In this document: in pieces, positions 2,027 through 36,569 of the stretch | Layout: each line of letters opens with the position of its first letter | How positions within the stretch are numbered: the stretch's first letter is position 1 | Virus record (IMG/VR): IMGVR_UViG_3300017783_005492 | Direction: 5' to 3' (one strand) | DNA: 64,000 nucleotides | Origin: an uncultured virus (IMG/VR IMGVR_UViG_3300017783_005492) | Taxonomy: Duplodnaviria; Heunggongvirae; Uroviricota; Caudoviricetes | Notes under the pieces: model-generated | What the model was told of the DNA's origin: nothing | The model's database searches: none | What the model saw: only the letters and a program-made list of their open reading frames with translations | Program-made: the position numbers and the translations under genes

Positions 2027-2671
2027 ATGGATATCTGGTTTTGTGGAATACCCGGATCTAAGTGGAGTGGCATTGATATTCACATGAGGCACTCGCTTCC
2101 TGTGAATAGATCAGACGAATCTGAAGAACGTTTACATTTTCATAAACACAATGAAAAAGGTTATACGTTCAACGGGCATAGAGGTAGTTATTGGGGTCCA
2201 GGGCAAGGCTGCGGCGAGTCCTGGACTGACCTCGCCAAAATTGGCAAAGATAACATACTTGAAGAAATATCTAAAGAATTTGCTGGTGAAGGTATTCGAG
2301 TAATAAAATCTCACGCGTTTGCAAGGTACGATAACCTGCAATTCATTTACGATAATTTCAAAAACGACTATATGGTATTACTTAAACGTAAGCCACTACA
2401 AAGCTTTCTATGGTGGAATGCAATCATGTCTTTTGATGATGATGTCTATCCGTCATATAATGAAATGTATGAAAACTCTACTACAATGAAAAAAAGATTG
2501 ATAGAAGAGGATGAATATATAAAACAGTTCGCAGAGAAAATGAAGTTTAAGTGGAGTTTATACGAACCTAAAACTTCATTCCTTGAGATACCTGGGTTTG
2601 ATCCTGAGGCTGCGGAAGAATTTACTAAGAATCATGATGATGTTTACATTACCGTGAATAAAATTACTTAA
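2027..2671 (+). CDS. hypothetical protein, sulfotransferase/P-loop-like
   Basis: N-terminal CGIPGSKWS loop, IKSH motif; paralogue of ORF 1..582. Confidence 0.55.
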   Translation: MDIWFCGIPGSKWSGIDIHMRHSLPVNRSDESEERLHFHKHNEKGYTFNGHRGSYWGPGQGCGESWTDLAKIGKDNILEEISKEFAGEGIRVIKSHAFARYDNLQFIYDNFKNDYMVLLKRKPLQSFLWWNAIMSFDDDVYPSYNEMYENSTTMKKRLIEEDEYIKQFAEKMKFKWSLYEPKTSFLEIPGFDPEAAEEFTKNHDDVYITVNKIT

Positions 2672-2684
2672 TGGAGTAGAATGA

Positions 2685-3737
2685 ATGAAAACCTTAATTA
2701 TCTCGCTGTTCACTGCAGCAGCATTTTCCTTTTCAGCATTTGCTGAAACTCTCGAGGTTCAGTATCCCTCACAGCCTGGCGCACAAGGTACAACCCTATG
2801 GGGCGACACCACAGTTAAAGAGCTGCAGAAATATACTGATCATACACTAGTACCAAGATTTGTTTCTGGTGCTCGTGGTAAAAAATCCTTAAAGGCCTAT
2901 TCAGGCACAGATAAATCTACGATTCTTATTACACATGGTGGTAATGGTGAAGCATTCCTTATCGAAGATGTAGGAGATTTTGATTACGCTGACTACACAC
3001 CAGTAGTAATTATGAATTCTTCTATGTGGATTTCAAAGGTAGCTAATCGTAAAGGTGTAATGACTTTTCCACTTGATGGTGGATCAGGCTTTGGTCCAGA
3101 TTGGCTTTCAGTTGGTATGCTAGAATGTGGTCCAGAACGTACCACTACGGTTGATGACTTTCTTACATGCGTAAATACTGAAATGCGTTTAGTCGGCGGA
3201 TTCAAAAAAGGTGGTATGCGTAGAAAGGCATTTAATGATCAGCTACTACAAGGTAGCCGTGATACAATGGCTTCTGCTTTAGCAGCATCCTCACGTCAAT
3301 ACGATGCCGGTACTCATGTAGTATGGTATTCACATGGTATTGTTGATGCAGTAAACGGCAAGTACGGAGATCCAAATAATCCAGCTGACCAAGGTACTTT
3401 TGAAGTTGTGTATGAAGCAACACATGGTGTAGCACCTTCAGGTCCAGTGTATGATGCTTATTTGCTTAACCAAGGTTACCGTGATGGATTGCAAAAGACG
3501 CTGTTTACTCATAAAGATAATCCATACTTAGATGATATTCGTGAGGCTGTTAATAAAATGATTAACAACCCTGAATCTCTAGCAAAATTGCAAGAGCGTT
3601 TAGGTAACTATCCATGGATTGACGGTGTAGATGCACAAGCTCACACTAGCTATATTACGTCTCTTAAAACACCTCAGGCAGAAGCGGATCTAAAAAGAAT
3701 TGCTAAAGTTTGGTTTAAGTACGACGTAAAAGACTAA
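2685..3737 (+). CDS. tripartite tricarboxylate transporter substrate-binding protein (TctC/Bug-like)
   Basis: Signal peptide ending AFA, P..PG..GT..W and SGARG motifs; adjacent to a TctA-like permease. Confidence 0.65.
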   Translation: MKTLIISLFTAAAFSFSAFAETLEVQYPSQPGAQGTTLWGDTTVKELQKYTDHTLVPRFVSGARGKKSLKAYSGTDKSTILITHGGNGEAFLIEDVGDFDYADYTPVVIMNSSMWISKVANRKGVMTFPLDGGSGFGPDWLSVGMLECGPERTTTVDDFLTCVNTEMRLVGGFKKGGMRRKAFNDQLLQGSRDTMASALAASSRQYDAGTHVVWYSHGIVDAVNGKYGDPNNPADQGTFEVVYEATHGVAPSGPVYDAYLLNQGYRDGLQKTLFTHKDNPYLDDIREAVNKMINNPESLAKLQERLGNYPWIDGVDAQAHTSYITSLKTPQAEADLKRIAKVWFKYDVKD

Positions 3738-3741
3738 TCTA

Positions 3742-5256
3742 ATGATCGAATCTCTAGTAACTCTCCCACTGTATATGCAGTGGGGGATTATCGTGACAAT
3801 AGGAGTACTGTATGGGTCTATAATTGGACTCATACCTTCAGCTGGTCCAGCCAAAGCATTAATTATGTTATTTGGTTTGGCTCAGCTGTTTGATACGCCT
3901 GGTGCAGAATATCTTTTTGTTCTGTTTGCTATGGCTGTACTAGTGTCATGCTCAATTGGAGATTCGTTTGCTTCAGTTCTTATTGGCATCCCTGGTGCTG
4001 ATGGAACTGCAGCTACAATGGTAGATGGATTTCCTTTAGCAAAACAAGGGAAAGCTAGCTATGCATTGTCAGCAGCAATCACTACTTCAACGCTAGGAGG
4101 ATTGTTGTTTGGTATTATAGGATTTGCCCTATTTCCAATGTACGAATTAATTAGTTCTTATGTTGGCATTCCAGAAATATTTGGAATGATTATATTATCA
4201 TTTTCACTAATTACTTTAATTACGACTAAGCATACATTGAGATGCTTAGTAGCTTTGGCCCTTGGAATATTCGTAGGACTTGTCGGATATGATATTTATT
4301 CTACCCCAAGGTGGACCGGCGGAATAGAATATCTAGTTGATGGTGTGTCAATTGTTATTGTAACCGCCGGTCTATTTGCTATACCAGAAATGATTTATGT
4401 TCTAACTAAAAAGAATGAATATGAACATATAAACAGTAAAGAACACGCTAAGCAAACATGGCAAGGCATAGTTGATACTGGTAAAAACTGGTACATTGCT
4501 TTGCAAGGTTCATTAATTGGGTTTATAGTTGGAGTCTTACCCGGAACTGGAGGAGGCATTGGAGACTGGTCTGCTTATACTGCAACTACAGCAATATGTA
4601 GAAAAGAAACAATTCCATTTGGTAAAGGTAATATCAAAGGTGTAATAGGAAGTGAAGGCGCAAACAATTCCGGCAAAGCTGGAGCTATACTTCCTGCGTT
4701 TTTATTTGGTATCCCAGGCAATCGCGGCGTTGCTATCATCATGGCATTGTTTTTATATGTAGGATTTGAAATGGGATCAATGCAGGTGATTGAGGATACA
4801 GAATTTACTCATCATTTGTATTGGGGATATATGCTTGGTACAGCTATTTCAGGCGTTGTACTTCTTATATTTGCTAGACAAGTTTCAAAAGTAGTTTACA
4901 TTAAGCCAATTTATTGGGTTCCTGTTATGGCAGCTTTAACTATTTGGTCTGTACTAGCAGCTAGATATTATTCTACAATGTACGAAGATCTGATTATGCT
5001 TACCATCTTTAGTATTTTAGGGTGGTATATGAGAAGATATGAATTTAGTAGACCGGCATTTTTGATTGCGTTTTTCTTAGCAGAAAGATTAGAAGCAGGT
5101 TTATATCAAATGCAAGCGCTATATTTTTGGGAAGGTAATTATATAATAAACCCAATATGGGGAATGCACCCAATCATGACTGCCTGCTTAATTCTCGCCG
5201 TAGGCCTAGTAGGTTATGGAACTATGCGAGATAAATCATTAACAACGTATAGCTAA
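3742..5256 (+). CDS. tctA: tripartite tricarboxylate transporter large permease TctA
   Basis: About 12 TM segments; IGLIP, IGIPG..GTAATMVDGFPLAKQGKA, GVIGSEGANNS, FGIPG, RPAFLIAF signatures. Confidence 0.85.
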   Translation: MIESLVTLPLYMQWGIIVTIGVLYGSIIGLIPSAGPAKALIMLFGLAQLFDTPGAEYLFVLFAMAVLVSCSIGDSFASVLIGIPGADGTAATMVDGFPLAKQGKASYALSAAITTSTLGGLLFGIIGFALFPMYELISSYVGIPEIFGMIILSFSLITLITTKHTLRCLVALALGIFVGLVGYDIYSTPRWTGGIEYLVDGVSIVIVTAGLFAIPEMIYVLTKKNEYEHINSKEHAKQTWQGIVDTGKNWYIALQGSLIGFIVGVLPGTGGGIGDWSAYTATTAICRKETIPFGKGNIKGVIGSEGANNSGKAGAILPAFLFGIPGNRGVAIIMALFLYVGFEMGSMQVIEDTEFTHHLYWGYMLGTAISGVVLLIFARQVSKVVYIKPIYWVPVMAALTIWSVLAARYYSTMYEDLIMLTIFSILGWYMRRYEFSRPAFLIAFFLAERLEAGLYQMQALYFWEGNYIINPIWGMHPIMTACLILAVGLVGYGTMRDKSLTTYS

Positions 5257-5265
5257 GAGGCAAAA

Positions 5266-6198
5266 ATGATTTATACAAGAAACGGAAAATTAAAATTTGA
5301 TCGTAGCTTACAAGAACTGTTAGCAGAGCGAGAAAATTTAACGATAACTCAACACGATCGCAAAACAGGCGATGGTAAATTAAAATTTAGAAATTGTGAT
5401 TTTAGATATCAAGATTTTAGAGGGTGGACTTTCGAAAAGCTCGTTTTAGACGAATGTGATTTTACAGGATCAGATTTAAGAGGTGCAACTTTTAAGCAAT
5501 GCGGTCTAAGATCTGTGCTTTTCGAAAGATGCCAATTGGATGCAGCAGAATTTATTAAATGTAATTTAAGAGAAGGTGCGGTAAGATATTCATTTGCACC
5601 TGAAATTACATTCTATTCTTGCAACATGGTTACTACTAATATTGAAAAGCTTGATGCACCTAGATCTAGGTGGGAATATAATGATATGCGTAAAGTAAAT
5701 GCAAGAGGTGCAGACTTTATGTATGGTGAATTTAAGTTAAATAAAATGCGCGGCATGAATACACGCAACGCAAATTTCTCATGGTCAAATGCTCCTAACT
5801 TTTTTCATGATGAAGCATTACAGTATGAGTACTTGGATGACGATGTTGAGGTTACTGGATACAAACTTACTGCTGCAGATGCGAGAGGAATTTATCACCC
5901 TAAGATTACCTATGAAGTAGGTAAAGAATTTGATGCAGAAGACCAAAATGGTGAACACGTACCTCTTGATCCAGCAACTAATACAGGAATGGCTGTAGCT
6001 AATATGGCTTGGGTTCTAAGGGAATGGGTTGCGTGTGGAGCTTACAGTGACTACAGGCTTTTTCAAGCAACATTCAAAGTAAAAGATATAATGGAAAATG
6101 AAGGCACTGGAAAATTTAATGTAAAGAAAATGAAAATCATTAAAGAAATTGATATGAAGCCTTTTTATGAGTTGATGACGGAAAACATATATGATTGA
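5266..6198 (+). CDS. pentapeptide repeat protein with a C-terminal phage domain
   Basis: Repeats such as CDFTG SDLRG ATFKQ and ADFMY; C-terminal GYKL...YEVGK domain. Confidence 0.75.
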   Translation: MIYTRNGKLKFDRSLQELLAERENLTITQHDRKTGDGKLKFRNCDFRYQDFRGWTFEKLVLDECDFTGSDLRGATFKQCGLRSVLFERCQLDAAEFIKCNLREGAVRYSFAPEITFYSCNMVTTNIEKLDAPRSRWEYNDMRKVNARGADFMYGEFKLNKMRGMNTRNANFSWSNAPNFFHDEALQYEYLDDDVEVTGYKLTAADARGIYHPKITYEVGKEFDAEDQNGEHVPLDPATNTGMAVANMAWVLREWVACGAYSDYRLFQATFKVKDIMENEGTGKFNVKKMKIIKEIDMKPFYELMTENIYD

Positions 6199-6868
6199 TA
6201 TTACTGGCCAGTTTGAACTTTCTGATTGGTGGAACAAATCTATAGAAGAAAGAGACTCTGATTGGAAGGCTACATATACCCGTAAAGAGTTAGGATACGA
6301 TGAGTACGTAGGAAAATTTACTTACGACACAAGAAAATTCACTGGTGAATTCCTACTTAAAGAAATTAAGAAGGATGGATCCGGTGTTTTTGTTTTAGAT
6401 GTTGGATGCGGAAACAACCCTTTCAAAAATAGATTAAAAAATGTCATTGGCGTTGAGCCAGGAACATGGGGAAGCCCTGACATAAACACTGACCTTCAAG
6501 GTGCTTATGATATATTCAAAGAAAATACTTTTGATTGGATATTGGCTATTGGTGTTTTACACCACCACAACACTGAAACTATACATACTATGATTGAGCA
6601 AATGAAGCACCTTGTAAAGTCTAATGGAAAAATTGCTTGTTTGTGTAAACCATTTAACGGATACAAAGCAGGAGCAGAACTATACCCTTGGTCGTTTGAA
6701 ACAACGCATGCATTTAGTAAAGCTCATAACCTAGAATACTATTTAGATCCAGTAATTGATTATACCTATGCTTCTAAAGTAGAGGAAAATGAAAGATTTT
6801 ACTTAAGAGATCCTGTCAAAAATGGTAAAACTCGTGAAAGGATTTTTTGGATATGGCAGAAGAAGTAA
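6191..6868 (+). CDS. class I SAM-dependent methyltransferase
   Basis: Motif I VLDVGCG, FDWILAIGVLHH. Confidence 0.8.
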   Translation: MIDITGQFELSDWWNKSIEERDSDWKATYTRKELGYDEYVGKFTYDTRKFTGEFLLKEIKKDGSGVFVLDVGCGNNPFKNRLKNVIGVEPGTWGSPDINTDLQGAYDIFKENTFDWILAIGVLHHHNTETIHTMIEQMKHLVKSNGKIACLCKPFNGYKAGAELYPWSFETTHAFSKAHNLEYYLDPVIDYTYASKVEENERFYLRDPVKNGKTRERIFWIWQKK

Positions 6869-7827
6869 CACGAGCCGGACCGATTTCAAAGCCGGTTGAG
6901 CTAACACAAAAGCAAAAAATAAGATACTCTAAAAGAGCTGATCAAATTGGTGATGGTGATAGATACGATCCTGAATATGTAGCTAACTCTACAAGAGAAT
7001 GGAGACTTGAAAAACTAAAGGATCACTTTAGCAATGATTGGTCTGAGGTTATTAGAGTAACAAGTCACGCTAAGACTGGATCAGGATTTGCTTGCGTAAG
7101 TGTTTTTAATGAAAAGAAATGTAATGTTGTATTAGACTTAGGTTGTGGAAATAACATTATGAAAGAGCATATCAATAATATGATAGGTATTGACTTGCTT
7201 CCTTGGTATAACAATGCAGACATTGTAATGGACGTTTTAGAATATTTACAATCTCTAAAAAGTGAAACAATCGATGGTATTAGATGTGTTGGTCCTTTTA
7301 ACTTTGGTACTGAAGATGAAATATTAGAGCTTATTTTTGAATGTGCTAGAGTTTTAAGACCTGATGGATTGATTTGTTGCCATGCCAGACCAGGACGTAT
7401 ATCAGATGAAAAACAGTTTAATAGAAGAGGTATGATTCATTACCCTTGGACCCGCGCAAAAATTAAAGAATTTGGAGACGCGGCTAATCTTGAATTATGT
7501 CCTTACAATCTTTCTGTACCTGAAATGAAACAGCCTATTATCACAGAATGGACAGATCTAAAGCAGCTAACATGGCCTATACTTAACTCATACATCGGAA
7601 GATACGACGAAAAAACTACTACCGTTGATGAGTGGAATCGTTGGATTAATAGGAATCATGACAAAGGTGACATGATTGATCCACAAGAACCAAGTGAACA
7701 ATTTCATGACATTCATATTAAATGTCTAAACGAAAAATTTAGAAGATTACAAAGCCCATTATACTCCACAGAACTTTCTGATGGAGTACGACCAAGGTTG
7801 AACTGGTGGTGGAAAAAGAACAAATAA
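6847..7827 (+). CDS. class I SAM-dependent methyltransferase
   Basis: VLDLGCG, GIDL, RVLRPDG. Confidence 0.8.
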   Translation: MDMAEEVTRAGPISKPVELTQKQKIRYSKRADQIGDGDRYDPEYVANSTREWRLEKLKDHFSNDWSEVIRVTSHAKTGSGFACVSVFNEKKCNVVLDLGCGNNIMKEHINNMIGIDLLPWYNNADIVMDVLEYLQSLKSETIDGIRCVGPFNFGTEDEILELIFECARVLRPDGLICCHARPGRISDEKQFNRRGMIHYPWTRAKIKEFGDAANLELCPYNLSVPEMKQPIITEWTDLKQLTWPILNSYIGRYDEKTTTVDEWNRWINRNHDKGDMIDPQEPSEQFHDIHIKCLNEKFRRLQSPLYSTELSDGVRPRLNWWWKKNK

Positions 7828-8408
7828 TTGCAAGGTACTCATCTTCTGATGAACTTGAAAAAAGAAACCTAGCACTCTACAGACAATTATCTGGATTAAA
7901 CTTAGCTAAAGAAATAGCTAATACAAAGCCTGATCTTGTAGTTGACTTAGGCTGTGGTGGAAATGTATTCAAAGAACACGTTCCAAATTTAATTGGTATT
8001 GATCTTGTATCTCATCCAAACGTAGACATCGTCGATGACCTTCACAACGCTGAATTTCTTTTAAGAAGAAAAGCTGACTGGATTCTAAACTTCGGTCCAC
8101 TTCAGTATACTGATCCTCAACCTCAAGTTGCAATGATGTCACGAATGCTAAACGATCATGGCACTATCGTAGCACACGCTGATCCAAAAAAGATTTCCTT
8201 TGATGAAGTTTGGGGATTAGGTGAAAGAAATGGTTTAAGAGTTTCACAGGTAGGTGACTCATATACAGACACCTCATTAATGACTCCAGAAGATAAAGCA
8301 ATCCAACTAAAGGTTTGTAAAAAACATAACATCCCCTTTGACAAATTTATTCAGCCACGATTAACTTGGCGCTGGCAAAAAAAATTTATTTTTGAACTTT
8401 TTTGCTAA
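7806..8408 (+). CDS. class I SAM-dependent methyltransferase
   Basis: VVDLGCG, GIDL, ADWIL. Confidence 0.75.
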   Translation: MVEKEQIIARYSSSDELEKRNLALYRQLSGLNLAKEIANTKPDLVVDLGCGGNVFKEHVPNLIGIDLVSHPNVDIVDDLHNAEFLLRRKADWILNFGPLQYTDPQPQVAMMSRMLNDHGTIVAHADPKKISFDEVWGLGERNGLRVSQVGDSYTDTSLMTPEDKAIQLKVCKKHNIPFDKFIQPRLTWRWQKKFIFELFC

Positions 8409-8517: not shown

Positions 8518-8790
8518 ATGATTAATAAAATAAAAAAAATAAATGTTTCAGAAACTTGCGGTTGGGTTGGAATGATTCTAATCCACGGTGCAACGGCTCC
8601 GACATCAATCGGATACATTATGGGATATTCTACTGATCTCCCGCCATTGAACTTCATACTTCTAATATGGCTTGGATTAGTACTCTTCTTGATAAGAGCG
8701 ATATATGCTAAAGATACTCTTTACATTGTATCTAATGCGATCGGATTCGCACTAAATAGTCTCTTATTAAGTTTAATCGCATTTAATTAA
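8518..8790 (+). CDS. small membrane protein (about 3 TM)
   Basis: Hydrophobic helices; ATG 8518 follows AAGGA. Confidence 0.7.
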   Translation: MINKIKKINVSETCGWVGMILIHGATAPTSIGYIMGYSTDLPPLNFILLIWLGLVLFLIRAIYAKDTLYIVSNAIGFALNSLLLSLIAFN

Positions 8791-8809
8791 AAAAAAATAC
8801 ACTTTTTCC

Positions 8810-8862
8810 TTTACAATTCAAAAGAAATAGTGTATAATAGATCTATAAAATGGAAAAGGAAG
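8810..8862 (+). promoter_or_regulatory. early promoter with conserved leader/RBS
   Basis: TTTACA(8810)-17bp-TATAAT(8833), then AGATCTATAAAATGGAAAAGGAA. Confidence 0.85.
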
Positions 8863-8879
8863 TAAATATTATGACATAG

Positions 8880-9055
8880 CGAAGGTAAAGATTGAGAGGC
8901 TGAATAAGGGAGATCACTAATAAGATCGACAGTCTCAGAGGTTTACAAGTCTGGTACGACTCAGGGAACCGTAATCTTAAATAGAATGTACCCTATCCTC
9001 CTCAAGGGGCGGACCAACCGGTCGAGGAGGATAGATGTCAGGCTAACCGCCCCAC
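8880..9055 (+). ncRNA. candidate structured RNA with pseudoknots
   Basis: No long ORF; GC-richer than flanks; complementary pairs GAGGCTG/CAGTCTC, AGTC/GACT, GGTAC/GTACC, CTATCCTCCTC/GAGGAGGATAG, GGGGCGG/CCGCCCC. Confidence 0.55.
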
Positions 9056-9080
9056 TTTATATTATGGAAAAGGAAATTTA

Positions 9081-9620
9081 ATGGAAATACAAGCAAACAT
9101 TGAGTACAAAATGTACGATGTTCCTCATAACTCAGGTCAACGAGCTATTGCGGATATCATAGAAAACGATGTGGTTAATCAACTTATTGAACAAGGTGGT
9201 GTTGCACCAAAAAGCGTGCGTACTATTGAAGATGTAACGTTCAAAGGTGTATTGGTTGACGTTAAAACCCGCGACATTGGTCGTGAATTTAGTATGCCTA
9301 ATCTTATTTCAGTAGATAGATTATCAAAAAATAGAAATACTGAAATAGCATACCTATTCATTGATTATGTAGTTAATCCTGTTGATGGTGAAACTGCTCA
9401 AATAGTCAATATTGAATATCGACCTATAGAGTCAATTGATTGGCATCATCTTTCTATTCAAAACCTTGGCTTAGGTCAACTTCAATTGGTAAAAACCGAT
9501 AAAGGTATTAATTACTTTGAAGGCACTAAAGATGATTGGTTCTTTGAGTTAAAGTTACAAATGGGTAATTTTTATGAAAGACAGATTAGAAAATTTGAAT
9601 CACTAAGAAAAAAATTGTAA
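9081..9620 (+). CDS. PD-(D/E)xK restriction-endonuclease-like protein
   Basis: ED...VDVKT catalytic-like motif; MPNLISVDRL and LGLGQLQ blocks resemble type II REase-like proteins; RBS GGAAAAGGA. Confidence 0.55.
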   Translation: MEIQANIEYKMYDVPHNSGQRAIADIIENDVVNQLIEQGGVAPKSVRTIEDVTFKGVLVDVKTRDIGREFSMPNLISVDRLSKNRNTEIAYLFIDYVVNPVDGETAQIVNIEYRPIESIDWHHLSIQNLGLGQLQLVKTDKGINYFEGTKDDWFFELKLQMGNFYERQIRKFESLRKKL

Positions 9621-9657: not shown

Positions 9658-9710
9658 TGTACAATTGAAAAGAACTATGGTATAATAGATCTATAAAATG
9701 GAAAAGGAAA
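9658..9710 (+). promoter_or_regulatory. early promoter with conserved leader
   Basis: TGTACA(9658)-17bp-TATAAT(9681), AGATCTATAAAATGGAAAAGGAAA. Confidence 0.85.
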
Positions 9711-9712
9711 AG

Positions 9713-9796
9713 TTTACTGGAGAAAATTTACTGGAGCCGAAAGGTTAGGATTAAGAGTCACTGCAAAGTTTTTTAAGATTAAGAGTCACTGCAAAG
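9713..9796 (+). repeat. two pairs of direct repeats in the 5' leader of the DUF932 gene
   Basis: TTTACTGGAG at 9713 and 9727; GATTAAGAGTCACTGCAAAG at 9749 and 9777. Confidence 0.9.
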
Positions 9797-30926: not shown

Positions 30927-31699
30927 AACAGCTTATATTTCAGGTTTACGTAGGTAAAAAATCTGCGCTATATGACCACTGCACAAATTCAGTAGCGGCA
31001 TACTGTAAAGAGCATGATATAGATCATGTTATACTTACTAAGCCTAAACTAATGGTAAGACCTGATCCGTTTAATACTGGTCGTAGTAAAGAGGCTGTTG
31101 ATAGACTAGGCTATCTTCCAATTTTTGAAAAGGAAGTGGCCTTTGAATACTTTGATGATTATGATCAAGTAGCTATCATAGACTCCGACATATGGATTAG
31201 ACCAGGCTCTCCAAACATTTTTAATGAGCTACCACCTGAATTTGATTTTGGTGGTGTTGCTGAACGCGATATGCCAATTACAGAGCAATACGCAAGAAAA
31301 ATTATAAACTATTCGCAAATGCAATATGGTAAGCTTCATGGTAAAGTAGATTTTATGCCAAACAGATTTGGCTACGAATTCTTTAACATGGGTATGATGG
31401 TAATGAATAAAGGCTTTCAAAAGCATCTTAAAGGTATGTCACCGAAAGACTGGATTACTCAACCGCAATTTAAGGATTTTGTTGATGGTGTTGGTCCGTG
31501 GAAATGGTCAACAGATCAAACGCTTTTGAATTACTTTATGAAATCATCACGTGTAAAAGTAAAAAATATGGACTGGAAATGGAACGGTCTGTTTACAGCC
31601 AACACTAATATCACGCAATGCCACTTTGTACATTTCTTTTTGAAAGATAAGCTACCTCAAAAAGGCGAGAACGTAGAGGAACTAATGAAACATGTCTAA
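30923..31699 (+). CDS. glycosyltransferase (GT-A fold, GT8-like)
   Basis: IDSD DxD motif, FFNMG, DQTLLN, HF. Confidence 0.75.
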   Translation: MKQLIFQVYVGKKSALYDHCTNSVAAYCKEHDIDHVILTKPKLMVRPDPFNTGRSKEAVDRLGYLPIFEKEVAFEYFDDYDQVAIIDSDIWIRPGSPNIFNELPPEFDFGGVAERDMPITEQYARKIINYSQMQYGKLHGKVDFMPNRFGYEFFNMGMMVMNKGFQKHLKGMSPKDWITQPQFKDFVDGVGPWKWSTDQTLLNYFMKSSRVKVKNMDWKWNGLFTANTNITQCHFVHFFLKDKLPQKGENVEELMKHV

Positions 31700-32375
31700 A
31701 ACTATCTTCGTACATATCCCTAAAAATGCTGGTATGACTATTCGGCATAGCACACAATTAAGAGATAAAATATTAGTTAATTCTCCTGACCGTCATAAGT
31801 CAAAGGCATATACAAAAGGCCTACATGAACAAATGGCAAAAACTGGTGATCATCACGGTAACGAGCATGCTCGATGGCGAGATCTTAATGAAGATTACCG
31901 TGAGTCAAATCCAGCATTTGCTGTAATTCGTAACCCCTGGGATCGTGTAGTTTCAAGGTATTTCTTTGCTAAAAAGGTCATTGAGGTAGAGCAAAAAGAG
32001 TCTAGTCGATATGCTAATACATCTTCATTCGAAGCATTTTTGGATGAAAGGTTTAAGTGGGGTGAAGAAGAATATATGTGGCATCGTGCTGTTAGAGGCT
32101 GGTATCCTGCTATGGATCACATTACCGATGAGCAAGGTAATGTACGCTGCGATTGCTTACGACTTGAAAACTTAAGTAACGATCTTATTGATTATTTTGA
32201 TTTGCAAAATATGTCAAGAGCTAGAAATGTAACTGCACTAAATAAAGGTAGTTACAAAGATATGTACACGCCTCAAACTATTCAGATTATAGGTGATTGG
32301 TACAAAGCTGACGTTGACTATTTTGGATTTGACTTTGATACTTCTGCACAAAAAAACTTCTGGGAAAGGTCTTAA
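31692..32375 (+). CDS. sulfotransferase family 2 protein
   Basis: FVHIPKNAG 5'-PSB loop, RNPWDRVVS 3'-PB motif. Confidence 0.85.
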   Translation: MSKTIFVHIPKNAGMTIRHSTQLRDKILVNSPDRHKSKAYTKGLHEQMAKTGDHHGNEHARWRDLNEDYRESNPAFAVIRNPWDRVVSRYFFAKKVIEVEQKESSRYANTSSFEAFLDERFKWGEEEYMWHRAVRGWYPAMDHITDEQGNVRCDCLRLENLSNDLIDYFDLQNMSRARNVTALNKGSYKDMYTPQTIQIIGDWYKADVDYFGFDFDTSAQKNFWERS

Positions 32376-32376
32376 A

Positions 32377-32778
32377 ATGAAACATTTACTTACTGCCGCT
32401 TGCATGATAGGAATATCTGGTTGCACTCCTGCAATAGCCGAAGCGATTACTGATCACTACAAAAGTGTAATTGTTCAAAAACCGTACACTGTTGAGGTGT
32501 GTACACAAGGAGGCGGCAACAATAAATCTGAAGTTCAGAACTTTCTTGAAGGCGCTATTGTAGGTGGAGCTATTGGCAACAATATTCCTGGAGAAAATAA
32601 TGGCGGTGCTCTTGGTGCTTTTCTTGGCGGTGTATATAATACTGAAAGAAATAAAAATCAAGGCCCACAGTGTAGAACTGAAACACGATACGAAGAAGAA
32701 CGACGTGAAGTATATAGCCACAGCACTATCGTCTTTACATATGAAGGCCGACAACATTCAGTAAATTTTAAGAAATGA
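32377..32778 (+). CDS. glycine-zipper lipoprotein
   Basis: Lipobox-like ISGC; GAIVGGAIG...GALGAFLGG. Confidence 0.7.
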   Translation: MKHLLTAACMIGISGCTPAIAEAITDHYKSVIVQKPYTVEVCTQGGGNNKSEVQNFLEGAIVGGAIGNNIPGENNGGALGAFLGGVYNTERNKNQGPQCRTETRYEEERREVYSHSTIVFTYEGRQHSVNFKK

Positions 32779-32793
32779 TAGGAAGACTATATA

Positions 32794-33411
32794 ATGCTAG
32801 GTAAGCTATTTGACAAATATAAATGCGATAAAACCGCAAAGCACATGTATGATACGGTGTATGAGCCACTGTTTGAGAAACATAAAGATGATGAAATTAA
32901 CATTCTCGAAATTGGTGTATTCAAAGGAGCCTCAACTATGGCGCTGCTTGAATATTTTCCTAATGCTCAAGTCCACGGCATAGATGTGTTTAAGAGAGTA
33001 GCTATTCCTGATACAGTATGCTATGGACAAGAAAGAGTACACCTTATGAGGGGTGATTCTCAAAACATGGCGATTGGTCCACGTGTACGATCAACATGGG
33101 GAGCCATTAAGTTTGATATTATTATTGATGATGCAATGCATACACCTGCTGCAAATATGAAAACTTTACATGCATGTCTACCTCTTCTTAACGATGGAGG
33201 TACATACTTTATTGAAGATGTATGGCCACTCGAAAGTATGACTACAAAGCAGCTAGCACATCCGTGGTTAAAAAGAAATGCTCATGCTTACAATGCATTG
33301 GATAACGAAATGTTTCTTAAATCATTGGCTAATAGTAATAAAAAGATTACTAGGCACGATTTAAGAGATAAGACAGGTCAACCAGATTCTTATATTATTG
33401 AGTTAAGTTAA
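32794..33411 (+). CDS. class I SAM-dependent methyltransferase (sugar O-methyltransferase-like)
   Basis: DK...H.Y...YE, ILEIGV..GAS, FDIIIDD..H, GG.Y.IED. Confidence 0.8.
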   Translation: MLGKLFDKYKCDKTAKHMYDTVYEPLFEKHKDDEINILEIGVFKGASTMALLEYFPNAQVHGIDVFKRVAIPDTVCYGQERVHLMRGDSQNMAIGPRVRSTWGAIKFDIIIDDAMHTPAANMKTLHACLPLLNDGGTYFIEDVWPLESMTTKQLAHPWLKRNAHAYNALDNEMFLKSLANSNKKITRHDLRDKTGQPDSYIIELS

Positions 33412-34106
33412 TGAAAGCAAAAATTATTACCCTTAAAGGGCATAGTGGTAGTGAGCTAAACGCAGCTACATGTATTAAAAGCAGCAAAAAGTTACACAAT
33501 ACATTTGATATTGAAACCTTTGATGCTATTACACCTGAGCAAGTACCTCATATTATGAACTCAAATATGATCCAATGGACATATCCTCTTGAAGGTGTAA
33601 GAAATGATTTTGGTACAGGGCTAAAGCTTACAGCATATCCTACAGAAGTACCAGAAAAGCGTATTGCATGCTTTTTGTCACATTGGACACTATGGAAAGA
33701 AGTGATTGAAACCAATGAGCCAATGCTGATTCTTGAGCATGATGCTAAATTTGTACGCCATCTTGATCCTCAATATATTATTGATAGTAAGTTTTCCATT
33801 GTAGGAATTAATGATCCAATCGGTGCAACTCGTAAGGCTCGTACATATAAAGATATGATTCAGAGGGAAACCGATAGCATCATTTCAGTACCTCGAATCG
33901 ATGAGTTTAATATTCCTCAAGGATTGGCTGGAAATAGTGCATACATACTTAAACCAAACGGTGCAAAACAGCTAATTGAAACAATGAAAGACACGGGCAT
34001 TTGGCCAAACGATGCATTAATGTGTTATCAACTAATTAAACTTCTAGGTGTAACTACTCAATTTTATACCACAATACAACCAATGGAGTCTACAACAACA
34101 AGATGA
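33411..34106 (+). CDS. glycosyltransferase family 25-like
   Basis: FDAI, ACFLSH..LW, ILEHDA, AY...P.GA..L. Confidence 0.8.
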   Translation: MKAKIITLKGHSGSELNAATCIKSSKKLHNTFDIETFDAITPEQVPHIMNSNMIQWTYPLEGVRNDFGTGLKLTAYPTEVPEKRIACFLSHWTLWKEVIETNEPMLILEHDAKFVRHLDPQYIIDSKFSIVGINDPIGATRKARTYKDMIQRETDSIISVPRIDEFNIPQGLAGNSAYILKPNGAKQLIETMKDTGIWPNDALMCYQLIKLLGVTTQFYTTIQPMESTTTR

Positions 34107-34768
34107 CCTCAGCATATGTAATTTGTATAAAAGATAATGTTCAATCCATGCAGGCTGCTGAAAGATGTAAGCAGTCAGGCAATAAGTATGGATTTCCTAT
34201 TAGTGAATATCATGCTTGGACACCAGCAGATAATCCAATCGAAGTGTTAAATCAACAAAAAGGAGTGTCTACAGTTAACTTGGATGAGGTTTACTCTCGA
34301 ACAGAAAACTGTGCTGCAGCATTCTTAAGCCATTTTAGTCTATGGGAAAAGTGCCTTGAGTCCAATAAGCCTGTTGCAGTATTTGAACACGATGCTGTAC
34401 TTATGGGACCTGTTGATGATAGACTTACTCAAGGATTTGCATATAAGCAAATGATTAACATTGGTAAGCCATCATATGGCCAGTTTAGAACACCTGCTTT
34501 TATTGGCAGTGGACCATTAACATCTAAGAATTACTTTCCAGGTGCTCATGCATATATGATTAAACCAGCAGCAGCTCGTAGTCTTATTAGTTTTGCTAGA
34601 ACAAATGGTGCAAATCCTACTGATGTATTTCTTGATAAGAGAAGATTTCCGTTTTTGGAAGAGTGGTATCCATGGGTAGCCGTGGCTAAAGATTCATTCA
34701 GCACAATTCAGGTTGAAAGAGGCTGTTTGGCTAAACACAATTATAATGAGGATTATAAAATTGTCTGA
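34103..34768 (+). CDS. glycosyltransferase family 25-like (paralogue)
   Basis: FLSH..LW, VFEHDA, GAHAY...P.AA..L. Confidence 0.8.
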   Translation: MTSAYVICIKDNVQSMQAAERCKQSGNKYGFPISEYHAWTPADNPIEVLNQQKGVSTVNLDEVYSRTENCAAAFLSHFSLWEKCLESNKPVAVFEHDAVLMGPVDDRLTQGFAYKQMINIGKPSYGQFRTPAFIGSGPLTSKNYFPGAHAYMIKPAAARSLISFARTNGANPTDVFLDKRRFPFLEEWYPWVAVAKDSFSTIQVERGCLAKHNYNEDYKIV

Positions 34769-35420
34769 ATTTGATAGAGCCTTCTTAACAGGATGTGATA
34801 AGAATACAGAATGGATGTTGCCTTGGTTTATGGAAGGCTTTAAGAAGCATAACCCTGATGCTAAAATATCACTTGCTGATTTTGGTATGAGTGATGAAAT
34901 GATGGAATGGGCAGTAGCATCAAAGATGTTTCATTCTATTGGCCAAATGGATAAATCAACAAATACTCAAGGCTGGTTTTTTAAGCCAAGTGCAATGCTT
35001 GGTACACCTTATAAAGAGGTATGTTGGATTGACACGGACTTTCAAGTAATAGGTGACATGACTGAAATCTTTAACTACATTGAACCACAAAGGTTGGCTA
35101 TGGTTGAAGATACTCCTTGGAGTAAGAGGACTGGCCAACACTGGCATAATAGTGGTATTGTAGCTTTTAGAGAAAAGCCACCTATCTTACATGAGTGGGC
35201 TCAAAGAGTACAAGAAAAACCTGAAAGAGGTGACCAAGAAACACTGCATGCTATGATGGACCCTTTGAGGAAAGCAATATATATTACAGATTTACATCAA
35301 AAGTTTAATTTTATGCGATTGATGATTATAGACAAAATGCCTAAACCAAAAGATCTAAGAGCAATTCATTGGACTGGTGGTAAAGGAAAAGACGAGATCA
35401 GGGATCAAATGAAAAAATGA
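34761..35420 (+). CDS. glycosyltransferase (GT-A fold)
   Basis: WIDTD, NSG, GDQE, HWTG; probable TTG start after GAGG. Confidence 0.7.
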   Translation: MSEFDRAFLTGCDKNTEWMLPWFMEGFKKHNPDAKISLADFGMSDEMMEWAVASKMFHSIGQMDKSTNTQGWFFKPSAMLGTPYKEVCWIDTDFQVIGDMTEIFNYIEPQRLAMVEDTPWSKRTGQHWHNSGIVAFREKPPILHEWAQRVQEKPERGDQETLHAMMDPLRKAIYITDLHQKFNFMRLMIIDKMPKPKDLRAIHWTGGKGKDEIRDQMKK

Positions 35421-36010
35421 AAGTCCATATTATAGGCAACGGTGATTCACATAACTTTTACATTCCTCAAAAAGGATTAAAGCTTACATGTAATCTACCA
35501 CCGCGTGAAATTCCATTTGTATATGCCACATGTATTGTAGACTTTAAGATGTGTAGAGCTATCCATAAAGGAGAGATTGATCTTTCTGGTTACGACTGGG
35601 TATGCGGTGCTAGGCCTAAAAAATATACTGAAATGCATTCGGACTTTTATATAAAATCGGCTAAAAATATTAAAGAATTTTATTTGAACTTACCAAGATA
35701 TGCGTCAAACTATACAGACTTCAACTGTGGCCACATGGCTACTCACTACGCAGGAAATAAGCTGCAGGCTGAGGAGATTCACTTATATGGATTCGACAGT
35801 ATTTTCGACTTTAATCTTATATCTACAACAGACTTTGTATTACCTTCAAATAGAGATGCAGAAAATACATACAGATTGGCTAACAATTGGAGGCCAATAT
35901 CAGAAGGTATTTTCAAAGAATTCAAATCAACACAATTCTTTGTGTATCACAAACACGACAAGCCTAAAATTACATTACCAGAAAATGTTGAAATCATTAC
36001 CCCTAAGTAG
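35417..36010 (+). CDS. hypothetical protein, GT29/MptE-like Rossmann fold
   Basis: HIIGNG.S, G..A, IHLYGFD. Confidence 0.5.
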   Translation: MKVHIIGNGDSHNFYIPQKGLKLTCNLPPREIPFVYATCIVDFKMCRAIHKGEIDLSGYDWVCGARPKKYTEMHSDFYIKSAKNIKEFYLNLPRYASNYTDFNCGHMATHYAGNKLQAEEIHLYGFDSIFDFNLISTTDFVLPSNRDAENTYRLANNWRPISEGIFKEFKSTQFFVYHKHDKPKITLPENVEIITPK

Positions 36011-36039
36011 TTTACAATCTAGTCATAGTATGGTATAAT
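36011..36039 (+). promoter_or_regulatory. early promoter, probably yielding a leaderless mRNA
   Basis: TTTACA-17bp-TATAAT-AGTACT-ATG(36046). Confidence 0.8.
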
Positions 36040-36045
36040 AGTACT

Positions 36046-36531
36046 ATGATTTGGTTGGATATTACAGGTGGTAAAAAGTCAGAGCGCTCCAAAGTAGAGG
36101 ATGCGTTCTGGTTTGCTTTGTCTAAACTTATGCCTCGTAAACAAAATTTAGATGTTACTATTAATTTGACATCCTTAAAAGATGCAGACGGATACTGTCA
36201 TGGCATACCGGGAGGCGAGTATGAGATTGAAGTTAAAAAAGGACAAAGCTATCCAGACTTGATTACAACTGTATTTCATGAAATGGTTCATGTTAGACAG
36301 TATGAGAGAAGGGTAGAGATGGATGACACTTTACCCTATTTAGACCGGCCTTATGAACAAGAAGCGTATAAACTTCAGGAGGAATTATGGGAACTCTACA
36401 ATCAGAAAAAAGAGAAAGTTATTACGACTATATGCTACGAAAGTCTCAGGAAGAAGACAAAAGACTCGGTATCGACCATAGATCTGACCGAACTCTTATC
36501 CACGAGCTCTCTGACAAAATTAAACGCCTAG
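36046..36531 (+). CDS. zincin-like metallopeptidase
   Basis: HEMVH..Q, PYEQEA. Confidence 0.7.
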   Translation: MIWLDITGGKKSERSKVEDAFWFALSKLMPRKQNLDVTINLTSLKDADGYCHGIPGGEYEIEVKKGQSYPDLITTVFHEMVHVRQYERRVEMDDTLPYLDRPYEQEAYKLQEELWELYNQKKEKVITTICYESLRKKTKDSVSTIDLTELLSTSSLTKLNA

Positions 36532-36569
36532 AAATTGATATGGCACACTTGTTGAGAGCAGATGATTAA
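36387..36569 (+). CDS. small hypothetical protein overlapping the peptidase 3' end
   Basis: Strong RBS AGGAGG before ATG; coiled-coil C-terminus. Confidence 0.55.

Follow-up and report, generated by a model that had tools for sequence, protein, structure and literature searches.

A minigene-coupled RNA family of marine phages and a neighbouring nuclease family that tracks the loss of TTTAAA

The window considered here is the whole 64,000-nucleotide (nt) stretch of the uncultured virus record IMGVR_UViG_3300017783_005492 and is, as judged by its marker genes (gp32, baseplate gp5, gp6 and gp25, T4 RNase H and ribonucleotide reductase), part of a T4-like phage genome. At positions 8810 to 9620 an early promoter is followed by a minigene, a structured RNA and a gene for a PD-(D/E)xK nuclease, and a sequence-only reading of this locus had taken the four as one unit. 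Comparison with homologues points to two separate and probably new items: a double-pseudoknot RNA of putative function that is coupled to the minigene, and a probable orphan restriction enzyme acting at TTTAAA. The copies of the RNA define an uncatalogued conserved family in marine phages, the phages that bear the nuclease lack TTTAAA or often encode a DNA methylase, and the two elements are unlinked. Two points escaped the sequence-only reading: the RNA family includes the minigene as a conserved element that keeps its frame, and TTTAAA is lost in step with the nuclease family.

The RNA family, its fold and its minigene

Homologues were sought with patterns for the core of the RNA, and with two patterns that include the 5' end, in IMG/VR, the JGI metagenomes and GTDB. 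The 264 core matches yielded 246 with full flanks (the 18 lacking them were excluded), 89 that are distinct and finally 84 that were retained, which sets a lower bound of at least 84 distinct copies; all fractions of 84 below refer to these. Five distinct core-pattern matches from cellular genomes (L422, L438, L449, L458 and L468) were dropped with helices P3, P4 or pseudoknot PK1 broken, and were left unscored by the covariance model. The carriers are uncultured marine T4-like phages, with genomes estimated at about 170-200 kb, and jumbo phages, among them G087, a complete genome of 328 kb with a T4 gp23 capsid gene. Cellular genomes gave 58 pattern matches, of which four are genuine (L420, L445, L446 and L464); all four lie behind a phage-type promoter on contigs of metagenome-assembled genomes and are probably mis-binned phage DNA. 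From the AUG to the last paired strand the 84 copies measure 121-218 nt, and the one in the window extends over 8871-9053. The RNA is present once per contig in the window and in four of four long RNA-bearing contigs, and a promoter-like motif, by pattern match only, lies upstream of 77 of the 84 copies. About 500 nt upstream of one copy, on the minus strand of L181 (1593-1641), there is a glutamine riboswitch (56.6 bits).

No family of Rfam 15, with its ribozymes, riboswitches and marine motifs, matches the RNA in the window (best E 1.3) or in 19 homologue loci, 18 of them true. Among cultured phages there is no blastn match to three variants of the RNA, and the covariance model finds nothing in phage C48C1 and only a chance-level 19-bit match in Melnitz. 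A pattern for the 3' domain (GGGGCGG...GCTAACCGCCCC) drew six viral matches, none of them homologous to the RNA. In a literature search whose scope left most subscription journals outside, neither the RNA family nor the erasure of TTTAAA by a phage with a nuclease is described. The accessible part of one paper deals with other RNAs from a related phage group (PMC9004378), and the part of the supplement searched for a report of 10,000 viral RNA candidates contains no sequence match, although the RNA may be listed there (PMC10690425).

The strand order of the element runs from the minigene through a 2-bp hairpin and a GNAA spacer (GTAA in 73, GCAA in eight and GAAA in three copies) to P1, which encloses P2 and the arm formed by P3, an internal loop and P4; PK1 follows, and then directly P5 and the second pseudoknot PK2 (Table 1). 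All of the stems listed by the sequence-only reading were located, including AAGATT/AATCTT (8888-8893/8973-8978) and GAGGCTG/CAGTCTC (8896-8902/8930-8936), as were its promoter, ribosome binding site (RBS) and ATG ACA TAG. Folding of the window sequence alone exceeds chance by a modest margin (z -2.24; 4/200 shuffles equally good). Covariation among the homologues indicates that the fold is real. When 39 copies are aligned with MAFFT, 96.8% of the cells are paired, compared with 79.6 +/- 1.0 in shuffled alignments (0/500), and of the 18 pairs tested 11 change on both sides. The covariation score of 0.445 compares with 0.157 when shuffled and at most 0.066 with slid partners. Given the kinship of the copies (weighted N about 20), these 39 sequences are not 39 independent events. 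Covariation, the check to which the sequence-only reading had tied its structured double-pseudoknot RNA, was thus found. Of the five highest mutual-information pairs that were checked, four are pairs of the model, in P2, P3, P4 and PK1, and several different pair types recur within each helix; those listed for PK1 are GGTAC, GGTAG, GGTTG, GGAAC, GGATC and GCTAG. For P1, P5 and PK2, pairing with own and crossed partners was compared in 44 representatives: the P1 helix is 4.6 bp with its own partner and 2.6 bp with a crossed one, P5 is paired to 97% and 54%, and PK2 reaches 6.8 and 4.5 bp. As judged from these alignments, the three-way junction and both pseudoknots are supported by compensatory changes. 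The alternative that the region is a decayed protein-coding gene was rejected, with stops in every frame of the six copies checked and AUG-to-core distances scattered over the three frames (32/29/23).

Variation between copies is greatest in P2, which is of the GAUGGA type in 51 copies, of the AAUAAGGGA type in 24 and of other types in nine. The 3' pseudoknot is exchanged between copies as a module, identical P5 domains being found with both P2 types. A contig from run X12 that resembles the window (8709-8993) up to PK1 and then continues with a 3' pseudoknot of L090 type is a natural domain swap. Several further pairings found little backing in the family. A GUAA/UUAC pairing is unsupported, with GCAA or GAAA in 11 of 84 copies while UUAC is constant; a long-range helix TGACAT/ATGTCA amounts to merely 2-3 bp in 50 of 84 copies and is uncertain; and for a second minigene in loop 3 (AUG..UGA) the spacing keeps no frame. 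The GCTAA and the inner GACC/GGTC hairpin pointed out by the sequence-only reading do occur in the window, but neither is a family feature: GCTAA is found in two of 84 copies, and a hairpin of this type is present in 37 and absent from 47.

Each of the 84 copies has a Shine-Dalgarno (SD) sequence 6-12 nt upstream of an AUG that is followed by one to three sense codons and a stop, whereas only 107 of 1005 (10.6%) other SD-AUG sites in the same loci give so short an open reading frame (ORF). All 83 copies outside the window are also recovered by the core-only patterns, which are blind to the 5' end. With a UAG stop the sense codons are ACA in 72 copies, TTA in two, TTG and AAC in one each, AAAGAACCA in two and GATTACGGA in two; with UAA they are CGGCGA in three copies and AGGCGA in one. 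The frame is thus retained across eight ORF variants, which comprise two unrelated 6-nt extensions (AAAGAACCA and GATTACGGA), three other second codons and the UAA lineage. Since it is kept despite these codon changes, the AUG is more than a structural word, and the comparison indicates that ribosome loading at the minigene is under selection. The distance from the stop to P1 is 9 nt in 57 copies, 10 nt in 23 and 5 nt in four. A fold spaced in this way would lie at the mRNA entry channel of a ribosome that has the stop codon in its A site, and a ribosome would accordingly terminate on the minigene with the fold at its leading edge. Read-through of the stop, or IRES-like entry into the next gene, was considered and rejected: by eye, the reading frame shows no conservation beyond the stop or beyond PK2.

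The nuclease family and the loss of TTTAAA

The nuclease is the first gene behind the RNA solely in the window and in the near-identical L317 (2/84). The first gene 3' of the RNA could be called for 79 of the 84 copies; these genes sort into 16 unrelated families, most of them being small and not assignable to a known family. In the other direction, not one of the 80 best nuclease loci (of 89) contains the RNA core, and the 77% and 67% relatives of the nuclease sit directly behind other ORFs. When whole contigs were searched, 79 of these loci being covered (without L058), the RNA model matched one contig, at 30 kb from the nuclease gene, and the nuclease profile found a true homologue in one of 50 RNA contigs, the same one, most contigs in this comparison being fragments. 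A second profile match in the RNA contigs, a partial one of 16 bits inside a 923-amino acid frame, was left uncounted. Two complete genomes carry one element each, G087 (328 kb) the RNA and no nuclease and G064 (266 kb) the nuclease and no RNA. By these counts the RNA and the nuclease are unlinked and do not form one unit, and the co-occurrence that the sequence-only reading had named as a check did not materialise. Its suggestion that the nuclease has the RNA as its antitoxin or guide would fit the adjacency and co-transcription in the window and L317 but is very improbable, given that each element mostly occurs without the other and that the RNA has no guide-like variable segment; with the likely target site missing from the phage, which already accounts for self-protection, an antitoxin is apparently not needed.

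The assignment of the ORF to restriction-type PD-(D/E)xK nucleases was borne out. A fold search with Foldseek gave HincII (E 8e-8) and SwaI (E 5e-7), profile searches gave E 2.5e-6 and 0.004, and members of the family match the Pfam SwaI-like and HincII families. The four active-site residues given in Table 1 are invariant in 61 sequences. There are 87 close relatives and 578 found by profile, and none of 120 listed has an informative name; searches of NCBIfam, PHROGs and plasmids supplied no name, and cultured phages no match. The protein is predicted to be a homodimer, with a model score of 0.59 compared with 0.00 for the best of three controls (the mark was reached by 20 of 30 solved homodimers and one of 23 monomers), at least 91% of contacts agreeing between runs and a pLDDT of at least 83, a prediction that may reflect likeness to the solved HincII and SwaI structures. 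In the accessible parts of their descriptions, the type IIP enzymes R.SwaI (PDB 5tgq) and R.HincII (GTYRAC; PDB 1kc6) share with the nuclease the fold, the D...D-x-K centre, which in R.SwaI is D76, D93 and K95 (PMC5415892), and the dimeric state predicted here. The nuclease differs in its 13-23% identity, its shorter length, its being phage-encoded and usually without a methylase, and its likely site, which would be the 6-bp core TTTAAA of the R.SwaI site ATTTAAAT.

The likely target was sought through the palindromes that the window avoids. TTTAAA occurs in it 0 times compared with 48 expected (z -6.9), the next most avoided palindrome reaching -2.6. AAATTT is present 58 times, and the 18 one-mismatch variants of TTTAAA all lie near or above expectation. 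The site is absent from 73 of the 80 nuclease loci (44 seen, 242 expected) and, after dereplication, from 36 of 42, in phages that span 31-51% GC; from 83 RNA loci, by comparison, it is not missing (195 seen, 221 expected). Whole contigs were counted for 24 of the 79 nuclease carriers, the long ones and, deliberately, those with local sites. Of these, 18 are purged, with 7 TTTAAA to 1913 AAATTT and, among them, no site at all in 259 kb and in 226 kb, whereas none of 16 control contigs is purged (1403 TTTAAA to 1205 AAATTT). The controls were 14 RNA-bearing contigs without a nuclease match and two cultured genomes, and the association of purging with the nuclease (Fisher p 1.5e-6) is inflated by kinship of the contigs. 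The nearest virus record, G001 (29 kb), has 0 TTTAAA and 33 AAATTT and no nuclease in that fragment, and its genome is predicted to carry the gene elsewhere.

Methylases complete the pattern. An N6/N4 methylase accompanies four of the six unpurged carriers and three of the 18 purged ones (p 0.04, kinship overstating independence). Methylase genes lie beside three of the 80 nuclease homologues, directly 3' of the nuclease in L056 and L064 and about 1.6 kb upstream in L073, and are candidate TTTAAA methylases. In the window itself a cognate enzyme was looked for, and no N6/N4 methylase and no DPPY-type motif were found among the 67 longer ORFs scanned, which sets it apart from a type II restriction-modification system. 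G064 bears a methylase and is nearly purged nonetheless (5 TTTAAA to 325 AAATTT). Taken together, the counts indicate that nuclease-bearing phages lack TTTAAA or often have a DNA methylase. The nuclease very probably cuts TTTAAA as an orphan enzyme that is dimeric and type IIP-like, and would be aimed early in infection at the DNA of the host, or of a competitor, the phage being spared by loss of the site; carriers would be protected by that loss or, less often, by methylation. Weighing against this are two of the six unpurged nuclease contigs, which show no methylase within the 13-20 kb examined. One of them is L048, where the nuclease homologue (2531-3139) is diverged, has no ATG start and carries D in place of the invariant E28; this contig retains TTTAAA, and its nuclease is possibly inactive or of other specificity.

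Phages commonly avoid the restriction sites of their hosts. It could be that TTTAAA restriction by the hosts themselves drove the loss of sites and that the phage nuclease, as a non-specific DNase or a homing enzyme, hits some other target, and the two unpurged contigs without a methylase would fit such an account. We consider it improbable: the loss follows the gene over the whole GC range, related phages without a nuclease match retain the site, methylase genes are concentrated in the unpurged carriers and in L056 stand adjacent to the nuclease, and the nearest fold, that of SwaI, belongs to an enzyme whose site contains TTTAAA, according to the accessible part of its description (PMC5415892). 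TTTAAA is also the site of DraI, as far as the available text of PMC5567051 goes.

For the orphan TTTAAA enzyme, self would be distinguished from non-self by erasure of the site instead of modification of the DNA. Viral nucleases that attack host DNA and spare modified viral DNA are familiar from T4, with EndoII and EndoIV and its hydroxymethylcytosine, and from the restriction-modification systems of chloroviruses. The present case differs in that the phage would be protected mostly by losing a 6-bp site throughout its genome, and a minority of carriers have a methylase. The sequence missing from the genomes reveals the likely target; the prediction is a compact, DraI-like enzyme, and absence of TTTAAA may serve as a simple marker for spotting carriers of the nuclease.

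Possible functions of the RNA

The reading that we place first, tentatively and well aware that it may be displaced, is that the RNA is a ribosome-gated protector of the 5' end of its own early transcript. A ribosome would load at the SD, translate one to three codons and halt at the stop with the fold at its mRNA entry channel; the stop-to-fold spacing of 9-10 nt (80/84) would mean that it never unwinds the fold. The short leader would be lost, and the knotted junction would block 5'-end-dependent decay mechanically, in the manner of the exoribonuclease-resistant RNAs (xrRNAs) of flaviviruses. The outcome would be a stable early mRNA that begins just after the stop codon, irrespective of the genes that follow. 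This is consistent with the position of the RNA, first behind the promoter in 77 of 84 copies, with the lack of a terminator-like hairpin after it (0/84, by a crude test), and with the strand order P1-P2-P3 (loop pseudoknot to the strand 3' of P1)-hairpin, which is that of the flaviviral xrRNAs. The covarying fold, the selection on the minigene and the unrelated downstream genes agree with it as well, and the contig start in run X1 (below) does so weakly.

The likeness to xrRNAs goes some way. In the accessible part of PMC5760640 these have a three-way junction in which the loop of the third arm pairs with a strand 3' of P1, and the 5' end that they protect lies a few bases upstream of P1, as it would in the role proposed here; they are also reported there to block the bacterial RNase J1. 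The junction with a loop-to-downstream pseudoknot that is characteristic of class 1 is found in the phage RNA, where P1, P2, P3/P4 and PK1 covary. Class 1 xrRNAs halt a 5'-3' exoribonuclease 5-6 nt short of P1. Candidate positions for the xrRNA ring, formed by pairing of the 5' end and a base triple, are invariant here or vary on one side only. There are differences too: the phage RNA has no sequence or Rfam match to xrRNAs, has an extra internal loop that is invariant as well as a second pseudoknot, always comes with a minigene, and belongs to a DNA phage and not an RNA virus.

A number of facts weigh against a protector. There is one copy of the RNA per contig, although the window has seven early promoter-RBS repeats, at several of which a stabiliser acting in cis might be expected. 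The invariant unpaired UACA, CARGG and U-A-R-A suggest a catalytic or binding pocket over a mechanical block, the minigene is unnecessary for an xrRNA, and a pairing of the 5' end with the junction as in xrRNAs is unsupported (GUAA varies in 11/84 while UUAC is fixed). Above all, a 5'-end protector accounts poorly for the single copy and for the invariant loop bases.

Hints as to expression come from 24 marine runs that contain part of the region, 15 of them recorded as RNA. Four runs were compared with the window, all as contigs and not as reads. A contig of run X1 begins, with adapter sequence, precisely at 8880, which immediately follows the stop codon and lies 9 nt upstream of P1; cover in this run is zero over 8568-8879 and of about 20x through the nuclease gene. 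The contigs of the other three runs start at 8873 or cross 8880, which speaks against an mRNA end at this base, and because contigs cannot prove an RNA end the start in X1 is a weak hint. A contig from run X14 joins 8849 to 9064 across the 12-nt repeat (Table 1), skipping the RNA and leading from the promoter-RBS directly to the nuclease gene. It represents either an RNA-free strain or a template switch by reverse transcriptase at the repeat, and is no evidence of splicing.

A ribozyme, which had been among the proposals of the sequence-only reading, is in a non-HDV form an unlikely but serious alternative. The junction and PK1 would form the active site of a new, translation-gated self-cleaving RNA that cuts at or just after the stop, the ribosome blocking or timing the cut, and would leave an early mRNA with a 5'-OH. 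The compact core with its two pseudoknots, in which many unpaired bases are invariant, would fit, as would the X1 contig start, and a weak pairing of 2-5 bp between the stop-codon bases and an AU after P5 (at least 2 bp in 82/84) would bring the stop codon into the core. That long-range pairing fails in most minigene variants, however, three of the four runs have no end at 8880, no Rfam ribozyme family matches and no catalytic residue can be named. Two short conserved words in the RNA resemble loop motifs of the twister and twister-sister ribozymes. Unlike these, the RNA has no Rfam match at E up to 1-10, a different strand order, and a predicted GUAA-UUAC pairing that is broken in 11 of 84 copies. 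The strands of HDV are nested in the order P1/P2/P3/P1.1/P4. That the 3' domain is an HDV-like ribozyme, the topology first suggested, would fit the GCTAA before the last pairing strand in the window alone but is hardly credible, as this domain is a plain H-type pseudoknot without that nested order, the first base of the linker behind the long stem is A (83/84) or U and never C, GCTAA is so rare, the would-be P3 is absent from 47 copies and no Rfam HDV family matches. Small ribozymes are known from phage genomes, and the available part of PMC10879173 describes HDV-like and theta ribozymes that share nested pseudoknots and a phage setting with the RNA; there the catalytic C is at the first J4/2 position, with no known rescue. 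In comparison with what that part of the source describes, the present RNA has no conserved catalytic C, another strand order and no tie to tRNA 3' ends (PMC10879173).

We judge it unlikely, and rank it next, that the RNA is a translation-coupled cis regulator of the early operon (an attenuator, an antiterminator or a device for translational coupling), in which occupancy of the minigene would decide the formation of the fold and the progress of downstream transcription or initiation. In every case the RNA is the first element after an early promoter, and the gene that follows has an SD of its own. There is also a parallel in the leader of the LEE1 operon of EHEC, which holds an AUG-codon-UAG minigene that must be translated for full expression of the next gene, the position of its stop also mattering; the accessible part of that report describes no conserved pseudoknotted fold, whereas here the minigene is fused to a covarying fold of 120-220 nt and the downstream gene is interchangeable (PMC3262186). 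Against such regulation, no conserved alternative fold, terminator or SD-sequestering helix was found, the downstream genes are unrelated and freely swapped, and the core is constrained far beyond what a simple attenuator needs. The same unrelated downstream families, with no terminator or SD-hiding helix found, disfavour the riboswitch that the sequence-only reading had also entertained.

Lowest of the four stands a trans-acting early RNA gene, which we regard as rather unlikely. It would be a trap or decoy for ribosomes or release factors, holding terminating ribosomes or baiting nucleases that cut A-site mRNA, and would aid the takeover of host translation, the genes behind it being simply the next cassette. 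The single copy per genome, strong promoter and interchangeable neighbours agree with this, as does the fixed stop-to-fold distance, by which a terminating ribosome would have the fold at its entry channel. On the other hand there is no conserved terminator to give a discrete RNA, and cover of the RNA in X1 is not much above that of the next gene, contig depth being unable to rank genes.

Should the RNA be other than a passive protector, it could add a new ribozyme class or a new use of the terminating ribosome; as a protector it could be the first phage xrRNA-like element. A broader proposal that spans both elements, and which is doubtful as a whole, is that a new ribosome-gated catalytic or ribosome-trapping RNA, cutting at the stop or holding the ribosome, is found next to an orphan 6-bp enzyme that independently marks a widespread strategy of large phages, in which AT-rich host DNA would be destroyed after erasure of the site from genomes of up to 260 kb. 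If true, the phage would park a terminating ribosome on a two-codon minigene and link the processing of RNA directly to the state of translation in the host.

Promoter-RBS cassettes and neighbouring features

The RNA and nuclease locus is situated between two copies of a 29-nt promoter-RBS unit, of which the window has seven compared with 0 expected (100 shuffles). The best explanation of the arrangement is that two independent early-gene cassettes, one with the RNA and one with the nuclease, were shuffled into adjacency at these repeats. The PeSL promoter cassettes of T4-type phages, repeated units with a strong sigma70 promoter that act as sites of gene shuffling, provide a precedent that accounts for the adjacency; in comparison with the accessible description of PeSLs, the repeat here consists of promoter and RBS with no terminator stem-loop detected, and the RNA is single-copy (PMC2839356).

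Table 1. Features of the RNA and nuclease locus and of related loci (window coordinates unless a locus is named)
Feature	Position	Strand	Remarks
Sigma70-type early promoter, TTTACA-17-TATAAT	8810..8838	+	11/12 consensus; member of repeated promoter-RBS unit
29-nt promoter-RBS unit, copies	8480, 8833, 9681, 24339, 24993, 29823, 42414		probable shuffling points, PeSL-like
12-nt direct repeat ATGGAAAAGGAA, first copy	8850..8861	+	contains minigene SD
Minigene SD	8856-8860	+	inside first 12-nt repeat
Minigene AUG ACA UAG (fMet-Thr-stop)	8871..8879	+	conserved family feature, 1-3 sense codons
2-bp mini-hairpin (G.U, C-G) and conserved GNAA spacer	8879..8888	+	97% paired, no two-sided change
P1	8889-8893/8973-8977	+	closes three-way junction; 3/3 tested pairs change on both sides
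P2	8896..8936	+	variable arm, purine-rich internal loop; clade-specific; absent in L363
Conserved core	8940..8970	+	P3, P4, invariant internal loop UACA opposite CARGG
P3 (GGTT/AACC)	8940-8943/8967-8970	+	100% paired; two pairs with two-sided change
P4 (AGTC/GACT)	8948-8951/8958-8961	+	98.7% paired; two pairs with two-sided change
Pseudoknot PK1 (GGTAC/GTACC)	8953-8957/8988-8992	+	99.5% paired; two-sided change in 4/5 pairs
Invariant U-A-R-A in PK1 linker	8982-8985	+	
P5	8993-9003/9024-9034	+	11-bp stem of 3' H-type pseudoknot (8993..9053)
PK2 (GGGGCGG/CCGCCCC)	9006-9012/9047-9053	+	second pseudoknot
Loop 3 of 3' pseudoknot			conserved AU(U)G at start
12-nt direct repeat, second copy	9064..9075	+	RBS of nuclease gene
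SwaI/HincII-fold PD-(D/E)xK endonuclease, 179 amino acids	9081..9620	+	E28, D51, D60, K62; predicted homodimer; putative TTTAAA cutter
Next promoter-RBS repeat	9658..9709	+	downstream boundary of nuclease cassette
N6/N4 DNA methylases beside nuclease homologues	L056 3480-4370, L064 3528-4403, L073 425-1312		candidate TTTAAA methylases

The leader at 9713-9796, between the next promoter-RBS repeat and a DUF932 gene, contains two tandem repeat pairs (10 nt x2 and about 20 nt x2), and one contig carries an additional repeat copy. It folds no better than shuffles (z +1.3). Contig depth in the RNA run X1 peaks over this leader, at 185-284 compared with 20-50 alongside. Elsewhere in the window, CATG is slightly depleted (210 compared with 272 expected, z -3.7), and the regions 3742-8408 and 31692-37746 hold unusual accessory genes for a TctA transporter, a pentapeptide-repeat protein, SAM-methyltransferase-like ORFs, a sulfotransferase, two family-25 glycosyltransferases and an aminotransferase.

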